A DNA stretch of 64,000 nt from positions 252-64,251 of the forward strand of contig JBAZTO010000019.1 in the NCBI GenBank assembly GCA_041661865.1. The letters are read 5' to 3'. Made by a program: the position numbers and the translations under genes. Positions 3,197 through 50,200 of this stretch are shown one piece after another. The notes beneath the pieces are model-generated. The model saw only the letters and a list, made by a program, of their open reading frames with translations, did no database searches and was not told the origin of the DNA. This DNA is from Phycisphaerae bacterium (GTDB lineage Bacteria; Planctomycetota; Phycisphaerae; SM23-33). The first letter of the stretch is position 1, and the number at the start of each line of letters is the position of its first letter.

Positions 3197-4351
3197 CTAT
3201 TGTCGTTCCCGGACGATCTCTTCGTAGATCGCGACCATCCGGCGGATGTGCTGCTCCTGGGAGATGTTCCCGCGAAGATCGAGACACGCCTGCCGCATGG
3301 TCTGTCGCGATGGCGGATCCAGCAGCCTCCGCATCGCATCGGCCAGTGCCGGCACGTCGGCGGGATCATCCAATTTGAACCCGTGCGTGCCGTTGACCAT
3401 TGTCTCGCAGGCCCCGTTGCAGACGGTGCTGATGACCGGCAACCCCATCGCCAGCGCTTCCAACACGACCAGACTGCATGAATCGTGGCGTGTCGGCAGC
3501 ACGAAGAAGTCGGCCGCCTGGTAGAAATCCGCGGGCCGGTCCGTCGATCCCGCAAAGACGACGCAGCCGGCGACCCCCAGCCGCTCAGCCATTCGCCGAT
3601 ACGCCGATGGGTCAGGCCGGCCCACGACGATCAGCCGCAACCGCTCGTCGCCAACTCTTGCCACGGCCTCGATGGCCTCTGCCACTCCCTTAAGCTTGAA
3701 ATTCTGTGCGATTATCAGGGCCGCAACGTGTTCCGCGCCCAACCCCAGTCGGCCTCGCAGTTCGTCGCGGGCCGCGGCGTTTGCCTGCGGGTCGAACCTG
3801 GCCAGATCAACGCCGTTCAGCAGAACCGGCAGGCGATGTTCGTCGAGGGGGTAATGTCGCCGGGCTGTCTCCTGGATGTATCGTGACAGGCAGAGCAGGC
3901 GCGGGCCGTCGGCACGCATCAGCATGTCACGCTCGACCGCGGCGAAGAAACGCCGCTTGCGGTTCAGATGGTTGAAGAACCGCGACACCGTCCGGCCGAG
4001 CCGCGAGCGGTACTTCATGTGCGCGGCTGCGACCTCCTCGGCGGCGATCCCCGCGTGCGGGTGATACAGGTCGCACCTCTCGACCGGCAGCATGGCATGA
4101 ACAATGTCGTACGCGCGGGCCCGCGTCTGTTCGCGCACCGACTCAAGGAATCGCCGATAGCGCCCCAGCCGCGACCGGCCGCGGGCGTCAAGGGGCAGGA
4201 AATCCACCCCCTCGATCGCGGTGCCAAACGAACTGGCCGCCAGCGTCACGGCATGTCCCAGTTCCACAAGCCTGCGGGCAAGGTCCACGGTGTAGCGTTC
4301 GGCTCCGCCGCGTGCGGGATCAGCATGCAGGATGACGAGGAGGATCTTCAC
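3197..4351 (-). CDS. Glycosyltransferase family 1 (GT4-type)
   Basis: GT1 signature (VKILLVILHADPARGGAERYT... EALAMGLPVISTVCNGACETMVNG); likely GTG start at 4351 with AGGAAA RBS; the longer ORF to 4462 reads into the MITE. Confidence 0.75.
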   Translation of the reverse strand: MKILLVILHADPARGGAERYTVDLARRLVELGHAVTLAASSFGTAIEGVDFLPLDARGRSRLGRYRRFLESVREQTRARAYDIVHAMLPVERCDLYHPHAGIAAEEVAAAHMKYRSRLGRTVSRFFNHLNRKRRFFAAVERDMLMRADGPRLLCLSRYIQETARRHYPLDEHRLPVLLNGVDLARFDPQANAAARDELRGRLGLGAEHVAALIIAQNFKLKGVAEAIEAVARVGDERLRLIVVGRPDPSAYRRMAERLGVAGCVVFAGSTDRPADFYQAADFFVLPTRHDSCSLVVLEALAMGLPVISTVCNGACETMVNGTHGFKLDDPADVPALADAMRRLLDPPSRQTMRQACLDLRGNISQEQHIRRMVAIYEEIVRERQ

Positions 4352-4414
4352 AATTTCAACTTTCCTGTCCAGACACACGCCCGACACTCCGCATCGAGCC
4401 TCTTGCCTGGAACC

Positions 4415-4510
4415 CTTAGAGCCTATCCCAATAGGTGGCACAGCTTTTCCAAGCTGTGCCATGCACAGGCTGGAAAGCCTGTGCTACACACCTACTGAGA
4501 TAGGTTCTTA
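4415..4510. mobile_element. 96-bp MITE-like element, copy A (22-bp imperfect TIRs, two internal hairpins)
   Basis: 95/96 bp identical to the reverse complement of 5353-5448; termini TTAGAGCCTATCCCAATAGGTG / CACCTACTGAGATAGGTTCTTA are inverted (18/22); internal hairpins GGCACAGCTtttccAAGCTGTGCC and GCACAGGCTggaaAGCCTGTGC. Confidence 0.75.
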
Positions 4511-5335
4511 CGCGCCGGCCGCCGGGGCCGGATAATCGCCGATCCGCCGGCGCATCTTCGCCACCTTGCGGGTGACCGCAGCCGCATAGCGACGCCCGTT
4601 GGAGATGCCCACAAGTCGCAGGTAGTCCTGGAAAAACGCGTCCCAGTGCCGCTCGATCCACGCCGGCGGCATGGAGTACTTCAGTTGGGCCAGATCCTTC
4701 ACGCGCCACCGAAACACGCAGCATCGCGGGCGAAACATCCGCGCCACGTCGATCAGGCTCAGCCGCATCGCGCCGTCGGGATCGTCCAGGTAGATGTGGG
4801 AGGCGTAGAGGTCGCGATGGACATAGCCGCTACGGTGCAAGGCGGCCACCAGCTCCGCCAGCCGCCGCGTGAAGTCTTCGAGCACTTCAGGCCGGCTGGC
4901 GTTGCGATCCATGAACTCCGCGAAGCAATGTTCCAACGCCACGCCCGGCACGGCGGAGAGAAGAATGTAGCTTCGCCGCACTCCCAGCAGGTCGCGTTCC
5001 TCCTGGTAGTAGGCGTGCTGGATGGTCGGCAGATTGGCCTGGTTGGCGCTGCGGACGCATTCCATTTCGACGCTGGCGGGGCTCTGGCCAGGCCCGTAAG
5101 TCAGCAGGCGCCTCAGCCGCCAGGCCAGCGGCTCACGCTCGTATCGCTTCATGTACAGCACGAGGGGCCGGCCCTGCCCGTCGGTCAACTCGATGCGAAA
5201 GTATCGCCGGTGCCCCAGGCCCGCGCGCGTCAGATCCCGGGCCTGGGCGTACGAAAAGGCCGACGCCACCGTGTCCAGATTGTTGCGGCGGATCACTTCC
5301 AGCATGTCCGCCGGCATGAACTGCTTCTCGCCCAT
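4508..5335 (-). CDS. Lipopolysaccharide kinase (Kdo/WaaP) family protein kinase-like
   Basis: 275 aa; catalytic-loop motif YVHRDLYASHIYL and overall Kdo/InaA/WaaP-kinase-like profile; ATG at 5335 lies 17 bp from MITE copy B; TAA stop (4510-4508) is formed by the terminal bases of MITE copy A. Confidence 0.7.
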   Translation of the reverse strand: MGEKQFMPADMLEVIRRNNLDTVASAFSYAQARDLTRAGLGHRRYFRIELTDGQGRPLVLYMKRYEREPLAWRLRRLLTYGPGQSPASVEMECVRSANQANLPTIQHAYYQEERDLLGVRRSYILLSAVPGVALEHCFAEFMDRNASRPEVLEDFTRRLAELVAALHRSGYVHRDLYASHIYLDDPDGAMRLSLIDVARMFRPRCCVFRWRVKDLAQLKYSMPPAWIERHWDAFFQDYLRLVGISNGRRYAAAVTRKVAKMRRRIGDYPAPAAGA

Positions 5336-5352
5336 CGGCCGCGCGCTCCATT

Positions 5353-5448
5353 AAGAACCTATCTCAGTAGGTGTGTGGCACAGGCTTTCCAGCCTGTGCA
5401 TGGCACAGCTTGGAAAAGCTGTGCCACCTATTGGGATAGGCTCTAAGT
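5353..5448. mobile_element. 96-bp MITE-like element, copy B (inverted relative to copy A)
   Basis: Reverse complement matches 4415-4510 with a single mismatch; lies between the kinase-like gene start and the tRNA-Ser 3' end. Confidence 0.75.
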
Positions 5449-5486
5449 CACAGCACCGAGTTGCGCATGCACAGGCGCATAAGAAA

Positions 5487-5571
5487 CGGAGAGGGAGGGA
5501 TTCGAACCCACGGTACCCGAAGGTACACCGGTTTTCGAAACCGGCCCATTCAGCCACTCTGGCACCTCTCC
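5487..5571 (-). tRNA. tRNA-Ser (anticodon CGA)
   Basis: Minus-strand cloverleaf GGAGAGG...; anticodon stem CCGGT/ACCGG with loop TTCGAAA (anticodon CGA); long variable arm typical of Ser; T-loop GGTTCGAATCC; 85 nt, no encoded CCA. Confidence 0.85.
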
Positions 5572-5662
5572 GGCTTTGGCAATGCGGCAGAACACTCTAC
5601 CCGCCGAGGCTATCACCGTCAAGGCGACTGCAACCAAAGCGTAGGGCCTTTCAGTTTTCGAC

Positions 5663-5777
5663 GTAGCACGGGCGTCTCGCCCGTGAGTAGCATGGGCATC
5701 TTGCCCATGTCGGTGAGTTTTCGTATATCGCACGGCCGGGACGGCCGTGATACTCATGGCCAAGATGGCCATGCTAC
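5663..5777. repeat. Two tandem twin-hairpin units (four 8-bp-stem, 3-nt-loop hairpins) between the sigma gene 3' end and tRNA-Ser
   Basis: Hairpins 5667-5685 CACGGGCGtctCGCCCGTG, 5691-5709 CATGGGCAtctTGCCCATG, 5731-5749 CACGGCCGggaCGGCCGTG, 5755-5773 CATGGCCAagaTGGCCATG; the two units differ by compensatory G/C swaps on both stem arms. Confidence 0.6.
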
Positions 5778-5944
5778 GAGAACTGATGGCCCTGAACCAA
5801 AGCGGGCCAACCTGACGCACTGCGGATTGTGCAGATGATGAAACAACCTCGCAGCGGCAGGCACGCACTCGTAGCCGGCGGAGGACTGCCGCACGAGGAG
5901 GGACTGGTATTCCATCCGTTTTGAAACTGCGGGTTGGGTGCGTG

Positions 5945-6778
5945 TCAGGCCTCGTTGTCGGCCAGTTGTTTCAACGCGGCCAGGGCCTTCTTTTCGAGCT
6001 GGCGGACACGTTCGCGCGTCAGGCCGACCTTCTGGCCGATTTCCTTGAAGGTCCGCGGCGGGCCCTCGTAGCCGTCCAGCCCAAAGCGCAGCTCCAGGAT
6101 CTTCCGCTCGCGCGGTTCGAGGTGCTTCAGGAGCGACTTGACCATCGGGGCGTTGCATGCGTCCATCATCGCCTGCTCGGGGGCCGAGCCGGTGACATCG
6201 ACCATGATCTCGCCGATGGCGCTACTGTCCTCGCCGCCCACCTGCGTCGGGGCGTTAACGGCCAGCAGGCCCTGCTGGACAATCTCGGCCTTCTTGCGGC
6301 TGATGCGGAGTCTCTTGGCCATCTCCTCGAGGGTCGGCGTGCGGCCGAACTGGCCTTCCAGCTCCGCGGCGGTCCTGCGCCACTTGCTGATGAGCTTGAC
6401 CAGGTAGGCCGGGATGTGGATGGGCTGGCCGGCGTTGATCATCGCCCGCTTGAGCGACTGCTTGATCCACCAGGCCGCGTAGGTGCTGAACCGCACGCCC
6501 GCGTCGGGGTTGAACTCCTCCACCGCCCGCATGAGCCCCAGGTTGCCCTCCGCCACCAGGTCGCTGAGCGTCATGCCGGGATTGTAATACTCCTTGGCGA
6601 TCTTGACCACCAGGCGCAGGTTGGCGGCGATCATCTGCTCGCGGGCGATGGGGTCACTGCCCTGGCGGATCTTGCGCGCCAGATCCCTCTCCTCCTGCGC
6701 CGTCAGCAGGCGAGCCTGCTTGATGCGGTCGAGATACCAGCCCAGCGTCGTCTGCGTCGATAGCGATCGCACGGTCAT
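5945..6778 (-). CDS. RNA polymerase sigma factor, sigma-70 family
   Basis: 277 aa with region 2 (GNLGLMRAVEEFNP, RFSTYAAWWIKQSLKRAM), region 3 and region 4 HTH (TFKEIGQKVGLTRERVRQLEKKAL). Confidence 0.85.
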   Translation of the reverse strand: MTVRSLSTQTTLGWYLDRIKQARLLTAQEERDLARKIRQGSDPIAREQMIAANLRLVVKIAKEYYNPGMTLSDLVAEGNLGLMRAVEEFNPDAGVRFSTYAAWWIKQSLKRAMINAGQPIHIPAYLVKLISKWRRTAAELEGQFGRTPTLEEMAKRLRISRKKAEIVQQGLLAVNAPTQVGGEDSSAIGEIMVDVTGSAPEQAMMDACNAPMVKSLLKHLEPRERKILELRFGLDGYEGPPRTFKEIGQKVGLTRERVRQLEKKALAALKQLADNEA

Positions 6779-14878: not shown

Positions 14879-16036
14879 CTATTGGCGCCCCAGCACGTAC
14901 CGCTGCCAGCGGTCGGGGCCGAAAGTTTGCTCCTCCGCCGGCTCAATGGCCAACTCGCGGCGAAGTTGGGCGATGTCCAGGCGGGGCAGGGCCGGGTCGT
15001 CGAAGGCGCCGGCCGAGGGACAGACGAACACCTGAAACTCGTCGGCAAGGTTCTGGCGGATGAAGGAGTTAAGCACGGCCGCCCCGCCTTCCACCAGCAG
15101 GTACGTATGCTCGCGCTGTCCCAACGCATCCAGCAGGGCCGACAGAGAGACTCTCGGCTCATCCGAGCCCGCGACCTCCGTGGGCAATTCCAGTATCTCT
15201 GCGCCAGCCTGGCGAAGGGATGCCGCGGCGCTATCAGGTGCCACGGCTGCGGTTTTGGCAGCCGTGCTCGCCTTATCCTTGCCCGCGACCGTCGCGATCA
15301 GCACTGGCCATTGGCGGGCCGTGGCCAGCAGTTGGCAGTGGGGCGGGGTCCGCAGGCGGGCGTCCAGGACGATCCTCAGCGGCTGGCCGCCGCTGCCGCC
15401 GCGATTGTTGAGGAGCGGGTCGTCGGCCAGGACCGTGCCCGCGCCGACGCAAATCCCCTGGCACAGGCCTCGCAGGTGATGCACGTACTGGCGCGACTGC
15501 TCTCCGGAGATCCATCGCCCCGTGCCCCTGGGCAAGGCCAGCAGGCCCTCGACGGTCTGGGCCCACTTGCAGATCACCCACGGGCGGCGCCGGGTCCGCA
15601 GCTTGATGTAGGGGGCCAGCAGGGTCCGGGCCGCCTGGCTGCACGGGCCGACAGTCACCTCGATGCCCGCCTGGCGCAGCGTGGCCAGGCCCTTGCCGGC
15701 CACCTTGGCGTCGGGGTCTTCCATGGCCGCGACGACGCGAGCAACCTTCGCGGCAATCAGGGCATCGGTGCAGGGGGGCGTCTTGCCGTGGTGGCAGCAG
15801 GGTTCGAGCGTCACGTAGAGGGTCGCCCCGGCCGGGTCGATGCCGGCCCCTCGTGCAGCCGCCAAGGCCTCGACCTCGGCATGGGGGCCGCCGAAACGCC
15901 GGTGCCAGCCGCGGGCCAGCTCGCGTCCGTCGCGGGCCAGCACCGCGCCGACCATCGGATTGGGCTCGACGCTGCCCCGGCCGTTGCGGGCCAGGTCCAA
16001 CGCCAGAGACATTAAACGTTCATCCGCTTCAAGCAT
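14879..16036 (-). CDS. ribD: Bifunctional diaminohydroxyphosphoribosylaminopyrimidine deaminase / 5-amino-6-(5-phosphoribosylamino)uracil reductase
   Basis: N-terminal CMP/dCMP deaminase zinc motif (HAEVEAL... TLEPCCHHGKTPPC) and C-terminal RibD reductase domain. Confidence 0.9.
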   Translation of the reverse strand: MLEADERLMSLALDLARNGRGSVEPNPMVGAVLARDGRELARGWHRRFGGPHAEVEALAAARGAGIDPAGATLYVTLEPCCHHGKTPPCTDALIAAKVARVVAAMEDPDAKVAGKGLATLRQAGIEVTVGPCSQAARTLLAPYIKLRTRRRPWVICKWAQTVEGLLALPRGTGRWISGEQSRQYVHHLRGLCQGICVGAGTVLADDPLLNNRGGSGGQPLRIVLDARLRTPPHCQLLATARQWPVLIATVAGKDKASTAAKTAAVAPDSAAASLRQAGAEILELPTEVAGSDEPRVSLSALLDALGQREHTYLLVEGGAAVLNSFIRQNLADEFQVFVCPSAGAFDDPALPRLDIAQLRRELAIEPAEEQTFGPDRWQRYVLGRQ

Positions 16037-16117
16037 GGCCCTATTATAGGGACTCGGGGCCTCTTGGGAACGACAGTTGGCGCCACGTTTGGTACCACAG
16101 CCATCTCGGCTATGGAG

Positions 16118-16181
16118 GAAGACACAGGCGAGACGCCCATGCTACCCAAGATGAAGACACAGGCGGGACGCCCATGCTACC
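16118..16181. promoter_or_regulatory. Two tandem 35-bp repeats (GAAGACACAGGCGrGACGCCCATGCTACC) immediately upstream of ribD, each a hairpin on the minus-strand transcript
   Basis: Copies at 16118-16146 and 16153-16181; on the ribD-sense strand each folds as CAUGGGCGucyCGCCUGUG with two G.U wobbles; related to hairpin 5667-5685. Confidence 0.55.
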
Positions 16182-29226: not shown

Positions 29227-29334
29227 GAAGTCAAGCACGGCTGCAAACACCGCAGCCGTGGCACCTATCCCAAAGTTGGGCGCCGTGGCCTGCCTGCCGC
29301 AGGCAGGTTGTGGCGTTTGCGATCACGATTGAAC

Positions 29335-45029: not shown

Positions 45030-45103
<74 letters not shown>

Positions 45104-45215: not shown

Positions 45216-46001
45216 TCATCCATGCCATCGTCGGCTGCGATAGGCCAGGATCTTGCGGATGAGTCGCTTTCCATCCTCGTCCAACCTGGCCCGGCCGAGG
45301 TAGTCCTTGATGAAACGCATCCGCTCGACCCGGGAACAATACTTGGCAGCGCACCGATCCAATGCGGCCAGATCCTTGATGCGCCGGTGACGCCCCAGAA
45401 ACCAGCGGGCAAAACTGCCGCGCGGGCAGTCGATCCAGCACAACAGCGGCCGCTCGCCCGGCGAGCCTTCGATGAGCACGTTGCGCCAGTAGAGATCGTT
45501 GTGATAGAAGGACGCCGCATGTATGCGCCGGGTCATATCGGCCAGTTGGCGGCGAAAGGCCGCCCGGGCATCGGGCGCGCACGACCGGGCGCCGGCTGGC
45601 TCGGGGCCCCCGAAATAATCCAGCAAGGTGACCGCATTGGGAACCGTGCGCGTGAGGATGAAGGCGTGCCGCAGCCGGCCTAGCCGGTCACGCTCTTCAC
45701 CGCAGGCAATCCGCTGGGCGCACCGTATGCCCAACCGTTCAAAGACCGCATAGTTCTCGAACTCCCGCCGCGCCTTGGAGGTCCGCAGCCAGAACAGCCA
45801 TGAAGCGCGGGGAAAGCAATATTGCTTGAAGAAGACCGGGACGATCTCGCCCGAGGGCAGGGTCAGCGAATGCGGCTGCACGATGACGCCGGCAGAGCCC
45901 GCGGCCGGCCCGCCTCCGAACACGGCCAGAACATCAGACGAGGTACGAAGGCCCAACTGGAGAAAGGCCGATTGCCATCGCGGGTCAACAAGTAGCGTCA
46001 T
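45216..46001 (-). CDS. Lipopolysaccharide kinase (Kdo/WaaP) family protein, paralog 2
   Basis: FYHNDLYWRNVLI catalytic-loop analog and Kdo-kinase-like length; start ambiguous (ATG 46001, 46046 or 46118). Confidence 0.6.
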   Translation of the reverse strand: MTLLVDPRWQSAFLQLGLRTSSDVLAVFGGGPAAGSAGVIVQPHSLTLPSGEIVPVFFKQYCFPRASWLFWLRTSKARREFENYAVFERLGIRCAQRIACGEERDRLGRLRHAFILTRTVPNAVTLLDYFGGPEPAGARSCAPDARAAFRRQLADMTRRIHAASFYHNDLYWRNVLIEGSPGERPLLCWIDCPRGSFARWFLGRHRRIKDLAALDRCAAKYCSRVERMRFIKDYLGRARLDEDGKRLIRKILAYRSRRWHG

Positions 46002-46160
46002 GGCGGGTCCGATTCGATCTTCGCGTTTTTCGCAGCCTATAATCATACTGCCTGAAGTTGTGGAGGTTAGCTTATCGGCACAGGGCCCGTGTTTCCAGTC
46101 CGGCGGGAAAGATTCCATGTTTCAGCTTCATTTCATGTGGATGATTGATAATCGGAGCGT

Positions 46161-46817: not shown

Positions 46818-46890
46818 GCCGCTTCGCGGCCGGCTGTCTCCCGCACCCTCCCACCTGATTCTGTCCGACGACCGCTCGCGCCTCCAACAC

Positions 46891-46930
46891 TGCGCCCGAC
46901 AGGATTCGAACCTGTGACCTGCGGTTTAGG
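46891..46930 (-). pseudogene. tRNA 3'-fragment (T-arm plus acceptor 3' strand, Arg-tRNA-like) without a matching 5' half
   Basis: Reverse complement ...ACCGCAGGTCACAGGTTCGAATCCTGTCGGGCGCA has a perfect T-arm and CGGGCGC-A acceptor 3' end closely resembling tRNA-Arg at 45030; no complementary GCGCCCG 5' strand or anticodon arm can be formed upstream. Confidence 0.55.
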
Positions 46931-47201
46931 AAACCTTCAGTCGGGTTACAACATCATTGATGCTACGTAGTTATAAGGCGGATTACAAGCATTCTTGAGG
47001 TTTTCAAGTGGATGGCAGGTCACTGAGCACTGCAAAACAAGTCACCACCATGTGACGACTGACCAACTCAGTGACCAACTCGGAACTACCGGCAAAACAA
47101 TGGGAGGAATAGGTCCGAACAAGGACGTTGCCGCCAAACCAACGCGATGGTTGACCGCCTTCATCCCATTCGACTGTCCTTGCCCGCCAATCATCCAGGC
47201 G

Positions 47202-50200
47202 TCAGACAATATGTATGAATTCTCCGGGCTCGCTGGAAACTTGCCGCGGCGGGGCAGGATAGGCCCATGAGTTCAGCTTGTCAACCGTGTCTGTGTGCTT
47301 GACCGACTTGACCTTGCCGGCCGGAGCGAACAGCCCGCCCAGGCCATCCCAATTCAGCAGGTTCAGCGTGCCTATCCTGGCGGAGATGTGGCTGTCCACG
47401 AAGAATCGCGGTATCGGCTGATTTCTGGGGATCTTCCATCCCGTCACGGTCAGTGTCTTGATAGTACCGGTCGGCGCGTTGGCCGTGTCACCTTGTTGCA
47501 CATGGCGATCGGCCTGGAGCAGGTTGAAGCTTACGCCCGCGCCGTAGTCGCTGCCATTGCTGGCACCCATTTTCAGGCTGGTAATGTCTCCAGCTGAGCG
47601 GATCACGCTGTGGTCAACCGTTCCGGCAAAGGTGAGCGAGCCGACGAAACCGGCTTGCACGTCCCATGTCGTGCCGTTGAGCAGATCGCCCGCGACCTTG
47701 ACGCTGCCCAAGGCAGCCTTCTTGGCCGGCAAGGCCGCTCCAGTCAGCGTCACGTCGGCCCCGAAATGTCCTTGGGAGCCGGTCTTGGTGTTCACGCTTG
47801 TGGTCAGCGAGCCGATCCAGCCTGCCGTGATAGTGCCTGACTGCCAGTCGGAGACCGTGATCGAGTTGATCCCGCCCGAGGCCGTAACACTGGCGGTGCC
47901 GACCCGGCCGGCCTTCAGCGAATTGATCGATACGCCGCTGCGGGCGTCCTGGCCCGTAGCCGTCAGTGTGGACTGATCCAGATAGCCCAAGACGTTGAGG
48001 TTCTTAAGCCAAGAGCCAACATTGAGATCCACACCAATCATTTGGCCGCAGGTAATGCCAATCCCCTTGGTGGCGCCGGCGCCAGGCATGACCAGATCGG
48101 CGCCATCTCGCACGTCCTCCACCTGCAAGGTACCGATGTACCCGGCGCCGGTCATAAGAACGCCGCCGCCGACCAGATCAATTGTGCTTGCGTCCACTTG
48201 TCCAAGTGGATCATCGCTCGTAATCCGCCCGACTGTCGCGCCGGGAACAGTCCCGCCCTTAGTCTTGAAGGTCAGTTTCGTTTTGTCGTCTGATTGGGTC
48301 AGGGCCACCTCTTCCAGTTCCAGGCCCGTCCCAACGACGGTGATGCCCTTCTTGTTGACGGTGTAAGTCGCCTCGCCCAGGAAAGTGAAGATCGCCGAGC
48401 CGCCCTTGAGCGTGACCGTCACATCCGTGCCGTCAGCGTCCTTGTAGTACAAGGCCTTGTCCGTGAGCGCATACGGCACCATCGTCATGGACCTGACCGT
48501 GACCTGCCCGTCCTGCAACGTCAGGACCAGATGGCCTTCGTTCAGCGAACTGGTATCGGCGAGATCCAGTAATGCCTGTCCGGGCAGGGCGCCAGCCGAG
48601 ACCTGGAAGTTCAGTTCGACCAGGCTGCCGGACCCGCCGGCCAGGATGTTCGTGGAATAGACCCACAACCTGACCTCTCCGGCCGCGTCGTCCACGTTGG
48701 TCGTGAGGGTCCACCCAGGTGTCAGGGTGCCAAGGCTCACGTCCGCGTTCGTCAGGTCCAGCAAGGAGGTATCGTAACGCAGGCAGATGTCCGCCGCTTG
48801 CAGCCCGGTGGCGTCGCCGAGAAGCACCGGGACGCTGACCCGTCCGCCGGGCACGGCCGTCAGGTTCGGCACGCTCATCAACGGATCGGGCCCGCCTTCC
48901 ACGATCGCCGGCAGCACGCCTGGAAGGTTGGGTATCTCCGGCTGTGACAGGCCAACGCCCTTGCGGGCGAGGTACGAGGCGTCCAGGCTGCTGAGACCCC
49001 CGTTGCCGGTGGTGTCAGCCAGCAGGACTGGGTCTTTCATGCGGTAGCTGGCGAAGCCTCCGTCCAAGCCCACGCCCACGCGGGCCAGGTACGCCGCATC
49101 CAAGGCGCTGTAGGCGTGGTTGCCCGTGGCATCGCCAAGGTAGGCCACCACTTGCACCGCGCTGTCGGTGGCCGAGGAAATCGCGCCCTCGTTGATGGAC
49201 AGGTTCTCCAGCCGGATCGGGCCGGCCGAGGAGTAGGGGGCGCCGTTGGGAATTGCTGCCGACACCCGCACCAGGTCGCGCGCGTCGGCTGCCAGGGGCG
49301 TCTGGCCGAAGACCCACACAGCCACACGGCCAGGGGTCCCAAGGTCGCGTTCCACCGACCAGCCCGCCGGCATGCCCGACGCCAGCGTCACGCCGGTGAC
49401 GGTCAGCATGGTCGGGTCGTATTCTAAGACGAAATCGATACCCAGGATGCCGTCCCCGTTGTCAATGGACACAGGGATTCCCGCGCCGGTCGCCGGGACG
49501 TTGACGGCCTGCCCCGGTCCGCGGGTGAAGTCCGGCAGCGAGAGCATCCGGGCCGTGCCCGCCTCAACCGTAACCGTGTTGACGTAATCGCCACCCTCGA
49601 CGTTGTTCGCGTCGCCGTCCAACAGATGGCCTTCGCCGTCCTTGAAGGCGTCGGCTCCGCTCCGCAGAGTCACGGTGTACGTGTCGGCCGCCAGTGGACC
49701 GCCGGTCTTGATGAAGGTGACCGTCCTGGCCTGCTCGTCATACAGCAGCGAGCCGGCCACCGGGCCGACGGTAGCGCCAACCACCGTCAGGTCCGCCGGG
49801 CCGTATGTGCCCGCCTGCACGTCGTAGAGGTTCAGCGTGCTGACGTCCAGTGACCGTCGGAAGCGGACGACGAAGCCGCTCGGCGTGGTCTCCAATCGAT
49901 CCACGCGGAGCTGCGAGAAGTCCAAAGTGGTCGCCGCCTCGATGGCGCCGGGATCGTCCTCGACGTACCCGACGTTGTCGCGGGCCACGCTGCGGAAGGC
50001 GTAACTGTGCCCGCCGACGCCGATGAACTGGGCCGAGGTATCGGCCGTGTCCTGCTGCCAGACCTGCCACTCCCCGCCGTTGTCGGAGACGTAAACCGTG
50101 TAGCTGCCGACGCCCGAACCGTTGGCGTCGTCCTGTCCGGCCCAGGTAACCGTGAAGGGCTCATCCGGCAGTTGCACCGCCAGGGCCTGCACGGCGCTGG

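Follow-up and report, generated by a model that had tools for sequence, protein, structure and literature searches.

Two inverted copies of an 89-bp miniature element with IS5-type ends bracket a lipopolysaccharide kinase gene in a Phycisphaerae bacterium, probably through separate insertions

The Kinase Locus and Its Flanking Repeats

The locus described here lies in a 64,000-nucleotide stretch of DNA from a Phycisphaerae bacterium (contig JBAZTO010000019.1 of assembly GCA_041661865.1), called the window below and numbered from its first letter, in which an intact gene for a 275-aa lipopolysaccharide (LPS) kinase of the Kdo/WaaP family, InaA-type (4508–5335, minus strand; Pfam PF06293, E 1.3e-22), is enclosed between two inverted copies of a short element that we classify as a miniature inverted-repeat transposable element (MITE). 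On one side follows a family 4 glycosyltransferase gene (GT4; 3197–4354, minus strand, GTG start at 4354, Pfam GT4/GT1 matches), the gene that ancestrally follows the kinase in its operon, and on the other, also on the kinase strand, tRNA-Ser(cga) (5486–5572), which lies 39 nt upstream of the nearer copy, duplication included, and is not part of the element. The kinase protein is identical to NCBI MFA6133865.1, a metagenome-assembled genome entry (“MAG: Phycisphaerae bacterium”), and this exact protein is on record in this context alone.

A repeat search returned copy A (4415–4510) and copy B (5352–5447) as inverted arms of 96 nt, 841 nt apart and complementary at 95/96 positions (99%), the sole mismatch being T4485 of copy A, where copy B and a third copy, introduced below, have C. 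A first-pass annotation of this DNA had rightly seen two near-identical inverted copies around the kinase gene, placing copy A exactly and copy B one position too far along (5353–5448). It had also given them 22-bp terminal inverted repeats (TIRs), of which the inverted ends stand while the length divides into a 19-bp TIR and a directly repeated 3-bp TTA. By the repeat search and the reading of the sequence, the true element is 89 bp long and non-coding, copy A occupying 4419–4507 (plus strand) and copy B, inverted with respect to it, 5355–5443 (minus strand); the open reading frames (ORFs) that cross it are over-extensions of the adjoining genes. Its 19-bp TIRs, GAGCCTATCCCAATAGGTG and GAACCTATCTCAGTAGGTG, match each other at 16/19 positions: in copy A the left one (TIR-L) lies at 4419–4437 (GAGCCTATCCCAATAGGTG) and the right one (TIR-R) at 4489–4507 (CACCTACTGAGATAGGTTC), and in copy B TIR-R lies at 5355–5373, reading GAACCTATCTCAGTAGGTG on the plus strand, and TIR-L at 5425–5443, reading CACCTATTGGGATAGGCTC on the same strand.

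Immediately outside these ends copy A has an outer TTA at 4416–4418 and an inner TTA at 4508–4510, and copy B has, on the plus strand, an inner TAA at 5352–5354 and an outer TAA at 5444–5446. Because each pair is a direct repeat, and a flank borne by the TIRs would be inverted (TTA...TAA), these 3 bp are a target-site duplication and not part of the TIRs. On the minus strand the inner TTA of copy A reads TAA and serves as the stop codon of the kinase, as had been noticed before. The inner duplication of copy B lies 3 nt upstream of the intact GGAG ribosome-binding site of the kinase (5346–5349, minus strand), which leaves 16 nt (5336–5351) from the ATG to copy B with its duplication; the closeness was thus correctly noted, the distance of 17 bp being one too many. 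From the kinase stop to GT4 there are 153 nt, made up of the 89 bp of the MITE, one duplication of 3 and a spacer of 61 nt.

In the Logan unitig L059 (SRR18595301) the kinase gene is joined at one end to 30 nt of copy B and at the other to 71 nt of copy A, in each case the inner part of the copy, and as this unitig carries both inner junctions independently, they are not an artefact of one assembly. Within the window, a search allowing up to 3 mismatches gave no further match to the 24-nt hairpin or to the 22-nt end of the element (as control, 100 shuffles gave 0 matches). A permissive Rfam search of 4000–6200 scored the tRNA alone, with sub-threshold mir-3688 noise at the element, which is thus no RNA family known to Rfam. 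A third full copy was found elsewhere, in a metagenome scan with the double-hairpin core of the element, on contig Ga0172379_10112037 (L079): 93/95 aligned bases are identical, the flanks are TTA..TTA, and the copy sits between a PEP-CTERM-type gene and bioD, a context unrelated to the kinase locus, the encoded BioD being most similar to Phycisphaerae MAG proteins.

Transposon Family of the Ends

The degenerate TIR query GARCCTATCYCARTAGGTG, scanned across 185,579 species genomes, matched 58 loci in many phyla, and TTA or TAA stood directly before 32 of them, against about 3% expected by chance (2/64 trinucleotides). The matches in Vibrio, Photobacterium and Salinivibrio are the ends of an 859-bp insertion sequence (IS) flanked TTA..TTA, with two overlapping ORFs that score as DUF4096 (E 5e-26) and DDE_Tnp_1 (E 2e-18) and are annotated “IS5 family transposase” in RefSeq plasmid records; the left TIR of the Vibrio IS is identical to TIR-R of the window at 18/19 positions, so that these TIRs are held in common with elements of the DUF4096 plus DDE_Tnp_1 kind. 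Short elements with both ends of this type, 56–164 bp long, occur in Photorhabdus, Massilia, Kosakonia, Chloroflexia and Elusimicrobiota, and among the ten pairs, the Vibrio IS included, that are clearly flanked by TWA (W being A or T), eight have the flank in direct and not in inverted orientation, which again marks it as a duplicated target rather than a piece of the TIR. The duplication, mostly a direct TTA or TAA in the paired-end elements, is of the 3-bp TNA/TWA type of the IS5 family. IS1237 of Leifsonia xyli, an IS5-family member of the IS427 group with IS1031-like features, is 899 bp long and has 19-nt inverted repeats starting with GAG and direct repeats given as “TTA (TAA)” (PMC2516522).

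Since its ends and its TTA/TAA flanks match those of the 859-bp IS, of the short derivatives and of IS1237, the 89-bp element can be assigned, on these sequence comparisons, to the MITEs with IS5-family ends and target of the IS1031/IS427 type. With IS1237 and the Vibrio/Photobacterium IS it shares 19-bp TIRs starting with GAG or GAA and the 3-bp TTA/TAA duplication; unlike them, it has no transposase, and its interior is not the remnant of a deleted IS.

Several other matches to the degenerate TIR were set aside. Some are conserved coding sequence and not IS ends (Leptospira, one Vibrio gene, Saprospiraceae); a candidate full-length IS of 1.7 kb in Serratia symbiotica (L034) has no transposase ORF; the ORF beside one TIR match (L041) resembles by eye the transposase of a different IS; and another match (L020) is in a sulfatase-like context and is not an IS.

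Empty Sites in Related Loci

Six related loci were compared, with kinases 78% (L060), 74% (L061), 64% (L062), 62% (L099), 60% (L096) and 55% (L098) identical to that of the window. By BLAST, the 89-bp element is absent from all six, and so is any tRNA, while the kinase is followed by GT4 in every one; plsY lies further downstream in the four longer loci (L062, L096, L098, L099), a pyruvyl transferase gene follows GT4 in L062, L096 and L099, and a GT9 heptosyltransferase gene precedes the kinase in L096, L098 and L099. In five of the six, the end of the kinase gene adjoins or overlaps the beginning of GT4: the two are joined as TAGcggATG in L060, overlap by 4 nt (ATGA) in L061 and L062 and by 16 nt in L098, and are 3 nt apart in L096. 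In L099 the distance is 30 nt from one called gene to the other, or 26 nt if counted to an in-frame GTG further upstream. The kinases of the relatives have 275–277 aa, as against 275 here, the C-terminus reading ...AAGA* in the window and ...TKGA* in L060, both ending in GA* at the same stop position, and the leader aatGGAGcgcgcggccgATG aligns with those of L060 (gatGGAGtacgcggcgATG) and L061 (gcGGAGtgcgcggttgATG) as far as the insertion, which lies 3 nt ahead of GGAG.

As the kinase has the same C-terminal end as that of L060, and its leader is conserved from the ribosome-binding site to the ATG, its stop is, by alignment, in the ancestral position and the gene was not trimmed; and since the kinase stop adjoins or overlaps GT4 in five of the six relatives without the element, copy A was very probably inserted into the TAA stop, which it regenerated. 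Of the earlier idea of a hot spot where two insertions trimmed the gene, the two independent insertions survive and the trimming does not. The MITE label of the first-pass annotation holds as well: it is a small element without coding capacity, bounded by TIRs and with a direct 3-bp duplication at each copy (A TTA..TTA; B TAA..TAA on the plus strand; L079 TTA..TTA), and its three copies have three different flanks, in unrelated sites, with no copy at the orthologous sites of the six related loci. To judge from the 98–99% identity of the three known copies, this MITE family of uncultured Phycisphaerae has apparently been active recently.

The origin that we consider quite probable is thus that an 89-bp IS5-family MITE was inserted twice, independently and in situ, into an LPS-core operon, with duplication of a TWA target. 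The 19-bp TIRs would be bound by a DDE transposase that a full-length IS at another place in the genome provides in trans, and integration would take place at a T-W-A trinucleotide that becomes duplicated on both sides. Copy A would have entered the TAA stop of the kinase, the duplication restoring the stop while the formerly adjacent GT4 was pushed away, and copy B, in the opposite orientation, a TTA that precedes the ribosome-binding site by 3 nt. That the copies bracket the gene so tightly would then be due to target choice and selection, insertions inside the ORF being counter-selected. In this DNA of 63% GC, TWA sites number 365 in 64 kb (5.7 per kb), as against 803 expected from base composition, and only two of them are inside the 828-bp kinase ORF; close bracketing would be expected because the targets are scarce and insertions into the ORF would destroy the gene. 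Mobilization in trans, and with it a cognate IS in this genome, would have to be supposed.

Certain observations weigh against this origin. A tblastn search with the Vibrio IS5 transposase found no IS5-family transposase gene in the window, and no full-length IS with the exact TIRs was found in a planctomycete among the species genomes scanned, to which the source genome does not belong, the matching autonomous elements being those of Vibrionaceae alone. The known copies are three in all; the relatives with empty sites are 22–45% diverged at the protein level and are not sister strains; and the target being always TWA, the argument for a duplication rests on the direct as opposed to inverted orientation of three bases. 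Finally, the interior is a dimer of repetitive extragenic palindromes (REPs), which, by analogy with other bacteria, may be moved by a different enzyme (a REP-associated tyrosine transposase, RAYT).

A REP Dimer Inside the Element

The two internal stem-loops reported by the first-pass annotation are real, and in copy A they occupy 4437–4460 (GGCACAGCTT-TTCC-AAGCTGTGCC) and 4463–4484 (GCACAGGCT-GGAA-AGCCTGTGC). They are not the debris of a transposase but form a head-to-head dimer, made of two REP-like hairpins with GTGG/GTAG tags, the last base of the left TIR (4437) being the first base of the first hairpin, and the GTGG tag (4435–4438) overlapping the final GTG of the TIR. The metagenome scan, in which GGCACAGC..GCTGTGCC..GCACAGGC only was constrained, returned 31 distinct contexts, with the pattern GT-GGCACAGC..GCTGTGCC-(0-6)-GCACAGGC..GCCTGTGC-CAC. 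The two preceding bases, left unconstrained, are GT in 27/31 contexts, which yields the GTGG tag, and CAC or TAC follows the second hairpin in 21/31; inner stem positions vary by compensated changes, such as GCC..GGC for GCT..AGC, and tail-to-tail variants of the dimer also occur (L076, L082). A scan of viral contigs with the same core had no match.

Apart from the 89-bp element, the dimer is found by itself or within different inverted-repeat shells in 30 further metagenome contexts. Most of the 31 contexts have no flanking inverted repeat, and about a third lie inside other TIR shells flanked by TAA or TAG, among them TAA with GSGGCCGTGCAAGAATAA (L063), TAG with TGWGCCGTCAAG (L065 and L070) and TAG with TGCTCTGTCAG (L066, L072 and L092). 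On one of these contigs (L063) an IS5-family IS at 296–1222, with TIR GGCTCTGTCTGAAAAC, flanks TAG..TAG and a transposase 30–32% identical to the Vibrio one, lies about 130 bp from a MITE-like element at 1345–1490 that has a REP-dimer core, the GSGGCCGTGCAAGAATAA TIRs and flanks TAA..TAA. In the related locus L062, a stand-alone dimer at 2345–2396 (GGCACAGCCTTTCTAGGCTGTGTATGCACAGGCTGGAAAGCCTGTGCTAC), without IS5-type TIRs, overlaps the GT4 orthologue at its 3′ end.

GTAG-tagged REPs, the GTGG variant of the tag and dimers spaced by 1–2 bp have been described in the PVC superphylum, of which Rhodopirellula baltica and Opitutus terrae are members (PMC3733652). Set beside the tagged REP dimers of E. 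coli, Pseudomonas, Stenotrophomonas and these PVC members, including those called REPINs and bacterial interspersed mosaic elements (BIMEs), the core is alike in having two palindromes of 22–26 nt, a GTGG or GTAG tag on the outside, a spacer of 0–6 nt and a dispersed, mostly intergenic distribution. It differs in that REPs have neither TIRs nor target duplications, whereas the dimer of the window is enclosed by DDE-type TIRs with duplications. The tagged palindrome of 20–40 bp is thus a property of the core only (GTGG, with GTAG in the second unit of copy A), as is the inverted head-to-head pairing, and because of the DDE-type TIRs and the 3-bp duplications we do not class the whole 89-bp unit as a REPIN.

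This leads to a more tentative view, less probable than not though still worth stating, that the element is a chimera in which an IS5-type shell for a DDE transposase surrounds a REP dimer of a separate family, RAYT-dependent in other bacteria, and that genomes of the Phycisphaerae type repeatedly capture REP dimers into MITEs, or else REP dimers repeatedly invade the centers of MITEs. The same REP dimer is found inside at least three other TIR shells, and by itself in most contexts, one of which is the orthologous operon of a relative. The interior may have arisen, as far as sequence tells, through capture of a REP dimer by TIRs, through invasion of MITEs by REPs, or by descent from one ancestral MITE. 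If the chimera were true, these elements could be moved by two unrelated transposition machineries, and the inverted pair could also act as an RNA-duplex or inversion switch on the LPS-core kinase.

An alternative that we regard as unlikely would be that the mobile unit is the head-to-head REP dimer itself, a REPIN or BIME moved by RAYT, with the 19-bp arms merely lengthening the hairpin. The recurrence of the core in 31 contexts with its conserved GT and CAC/TAC borders, mostly without a TIR shell, would fit this, as would the stand-alone dimer at the 3′ end of GT4 in L062, the tagged REPs and closely spaced dimers of the PVC superphylum, and the additional GTAG hairpins of the window at 5663–5777. 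What speaks against it is that the three full copies share the complete shell, with direct TTA duplications exactly outside the 19-bp arms, and that these arms agree at 18/19 positions with the ends of bona fide IS5-family elements; HUH/RAYT-type transposition, moreover, is not known to make target duplications. No RAYT gene was found, no search having been aimed at one.

Folding and Transcript Signals

The element folds at −30.1 kcal/mol as DNA (z −7.5 against shuffles) and at −61.6 kcal/mol as minus-strand RNA (z −8.9), the predicted form being a long outer stem that bears the two internal hairpins. In the kinase leader, copy B is predicted to form a self-contained three-way module, with the ribosome-binding site unpaired in the centroid structure, and sequestration of that site by the MITE finds no support for this reason. 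The sequences 3′ of the stems are UAAGGGUUCC and UUAAUGGAGC, with no U-run after either element on the transcribed strand, and a terminator scan of 4250–6000 called none on the minus strand. Since they have no U-tract, the hairpins are not intrinsic (Rho-independent) terminators, and the suggestion that they terminate transcription and insulate the gene is not supported.

In the same interval no promoter was found inside or adjoining the MITEs, and the only sigma70-like match is TTGACG-17-TAGAGT (5594–5622, minus strand), upstream of tRNA-Ser, a consensus match alone. Transcription from this sole match might read through MITE B, the kinase and MITE A into GT4, so that kinase and GT4 may be transcribed by read-through across MITE B, or else from an unrecognized promoter. 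In the closest relatives the kinase is preceded by a near-consensus sigma70 promoter (L060 40–95, TTGACT-17-TATAAT; L061 225–262). The matching position in the window is the 3′ end of tRNA-Ser, so that the native kinase promoter appears to have been displaced or lost, the alignment of the L060 promoter with the tRNA 3′ end being too weak to use. An islet linked to the tRNA was also considered and rejected, given the lack of a tRNA in the six related loci and of an integrase-type signature at tRNA-Ser.

As for consequences, copy A would remove the proximity of stop and start, and GT4 would then have to rely on its own GGAAAG-N8-GTG start. Expected effects would be the loss of translational coupling between kinase and GT4, and the presence of a structured RNA module, similar to REP/BIME or Correia elements, in the 5′ leader and in the intercistronic region. 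Copies A and B, if on one transcript, could pair over 96 nt, or could be substrates of RecA-mediated inversion.

Such properties could also be taken as the reason for the arrangement, the two copies being palindromes selected for regulation or structure, which terminate, insulate or stabilize the transcript or form a 96-bp RNA duplex or an inversion switch. REP/BIME and Correia elements do modulate mRNA stability, and the great stability of the RNA, the independent module in the leader and the 99% complementarity of two copies on one putative transcript would agree with this. We think it improbable, however, as there is neither a U-run nor a called minus-strand terminator, the ribosome-binding site is left unpaired, none of the six relatives has the arrangement, and effects of this kind are consequences of an insertion and not an alternative origin for it.

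Comparison With Known Systems

The Correia/NEMIS elements of Neisseria and the MITEs of the ERIC and RUP type are about 100 bp long, bounded by TIRs and flanked by a short A/T-rich target duplication; they insert beside ORFs, are co-transcribed, and their strong hairpins can alter the fate of the mRNA. The element of the window resembles them in size, TIRs, A/T-rich duplication, proximity to ORFs and hairpins; in contrast to Correia elements, its TIR family is another, its target is TWA and not TA, and no promoter or IHF site is evident in it. The Tourist-type MITEs of plants, of the PIF/Harbinger superfamily that includes the eukaryotic relatives of IS5, are likewise about 100 bp long with TIRs and a 3-bp TTA/TAA duplication, and prefer sites close to genes, although their hosts are eukaryotic and their sequences unrelated, and the parallel is an analogy only.

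With composite transposons the locus shares the plan of two inverted copies of one element around a single gene, but here each copy has its own duplication, the passenger has kept its ancestral place, and nothing indicates that the two copies and the gene ever moved together. That the pair moved, or will move, the kinase as one unit of 1,025 bp, a form of the composite transposon or mobilizable cassette that the first-pass annotation had entertained, is accordingly the least probable origin and is largely refuted, for although the outer ends are identical, inverted copies of TIR-L which a transposase could in principle pair, there is no single outer duplication (TTA on the left and TAA on the right, both on the plus strand, are not a direct repeat), the kinase precedes the same GT4 in six relatives, with the kinase-GT4-pyruvyl transferase order preserved, its leader and C-terminus are colinear with theirs up to the insertion points, and the exact protein has only the one recorded context.

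Returning to the two separate insertions, these are in themselves routine MITE insertions of a mildly unusual element, whose less ordinary aspect is the REP dimer inside the TIRs, a modest novelty that leaves the classification unchanged. The case shows how target preference shapes the location of small transposons: in GC-rich DNA, where the TTA/TAA target is rare inside genes, TAA stops and the AT-richer leaders become preferred landing sites, and a duplication that regenerates the stop leaves the gene intact but uncoupled from its operon partner. It also defines a MITE family in uncultured Phycisphaerae and documents a family of GTGG-tagged REP dimers in that lineage.

Other Repeats in the Window

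The neighborhood is permissive for mobile DNA, and to this extent the earlier notion of a hot spot is borne out, as an IS630-family element and a cluster of GTAG hairpins lie within 4 kb. The former, at 826–2013 (DDE_3, E 5.8e-27), has 32-nt TIRs (GGCTAAGCTGCCTGC..., 84% complementary) and a reading frame split in two around an A7 run near 1438–1444, and it sits beyond the pyruvyl transferase gene, where L062, L096 and L099 have plsY. The cluster, at 5663–5777, consists of four REP-like hairpins with the GTAG tags on the outside, GTAG-CACGGGCGTCTCGCCCGTG, GTAG-CATGGGCATCTTGCCCATG and two inverted partners; it is placed between a sigma-factor gene (5945–6778, minus strand) and the promoter-like site of tRNA-Ser, and belongs to a REP family other than that of the MITE core. 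Elsewhere, GTAG-GGC(A/G)TGCAA-CTCG-TTGCACGC occurs twice (8999 and 29197), a 39-nt hairpin, CCACGGCTGC..GCAGCCGTG, has inverted copies at 15236–15274 and 29228–29266, 14 kb apart, and a tandem 32-mer is present at 16115–16181. These short hairpin repeats suggest several low-copy REP-like families in this genome.

A second, Kdo-kinase-like paralogue (45216–46118, minus strand) beside tRNA-Arg, which had been mentioned in the same connection, is without a copy of the element and is unrelated to the event. Together with another ORF, it lies between tRNA-Arg(tcg) (45030–45103) and a 48-nt fragment at 46888–46935 that is 81% identical to the 3′ half of that tRNA; neither ARAGORN nor Rfam called the fragment a tRNA, and by its similarity it might be what is left of a duplicated tRNA or of some old integration event. 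Beyond it, a single ORF of 5,578 aa fills 47202–63938 (minus strand); a unit of 165 nt (55 aa) was detected in it 12 times, as tandem runs within 59587–63444, beside other internal repeats, and its product is presumably a giant protein of the surface or adhesin type.

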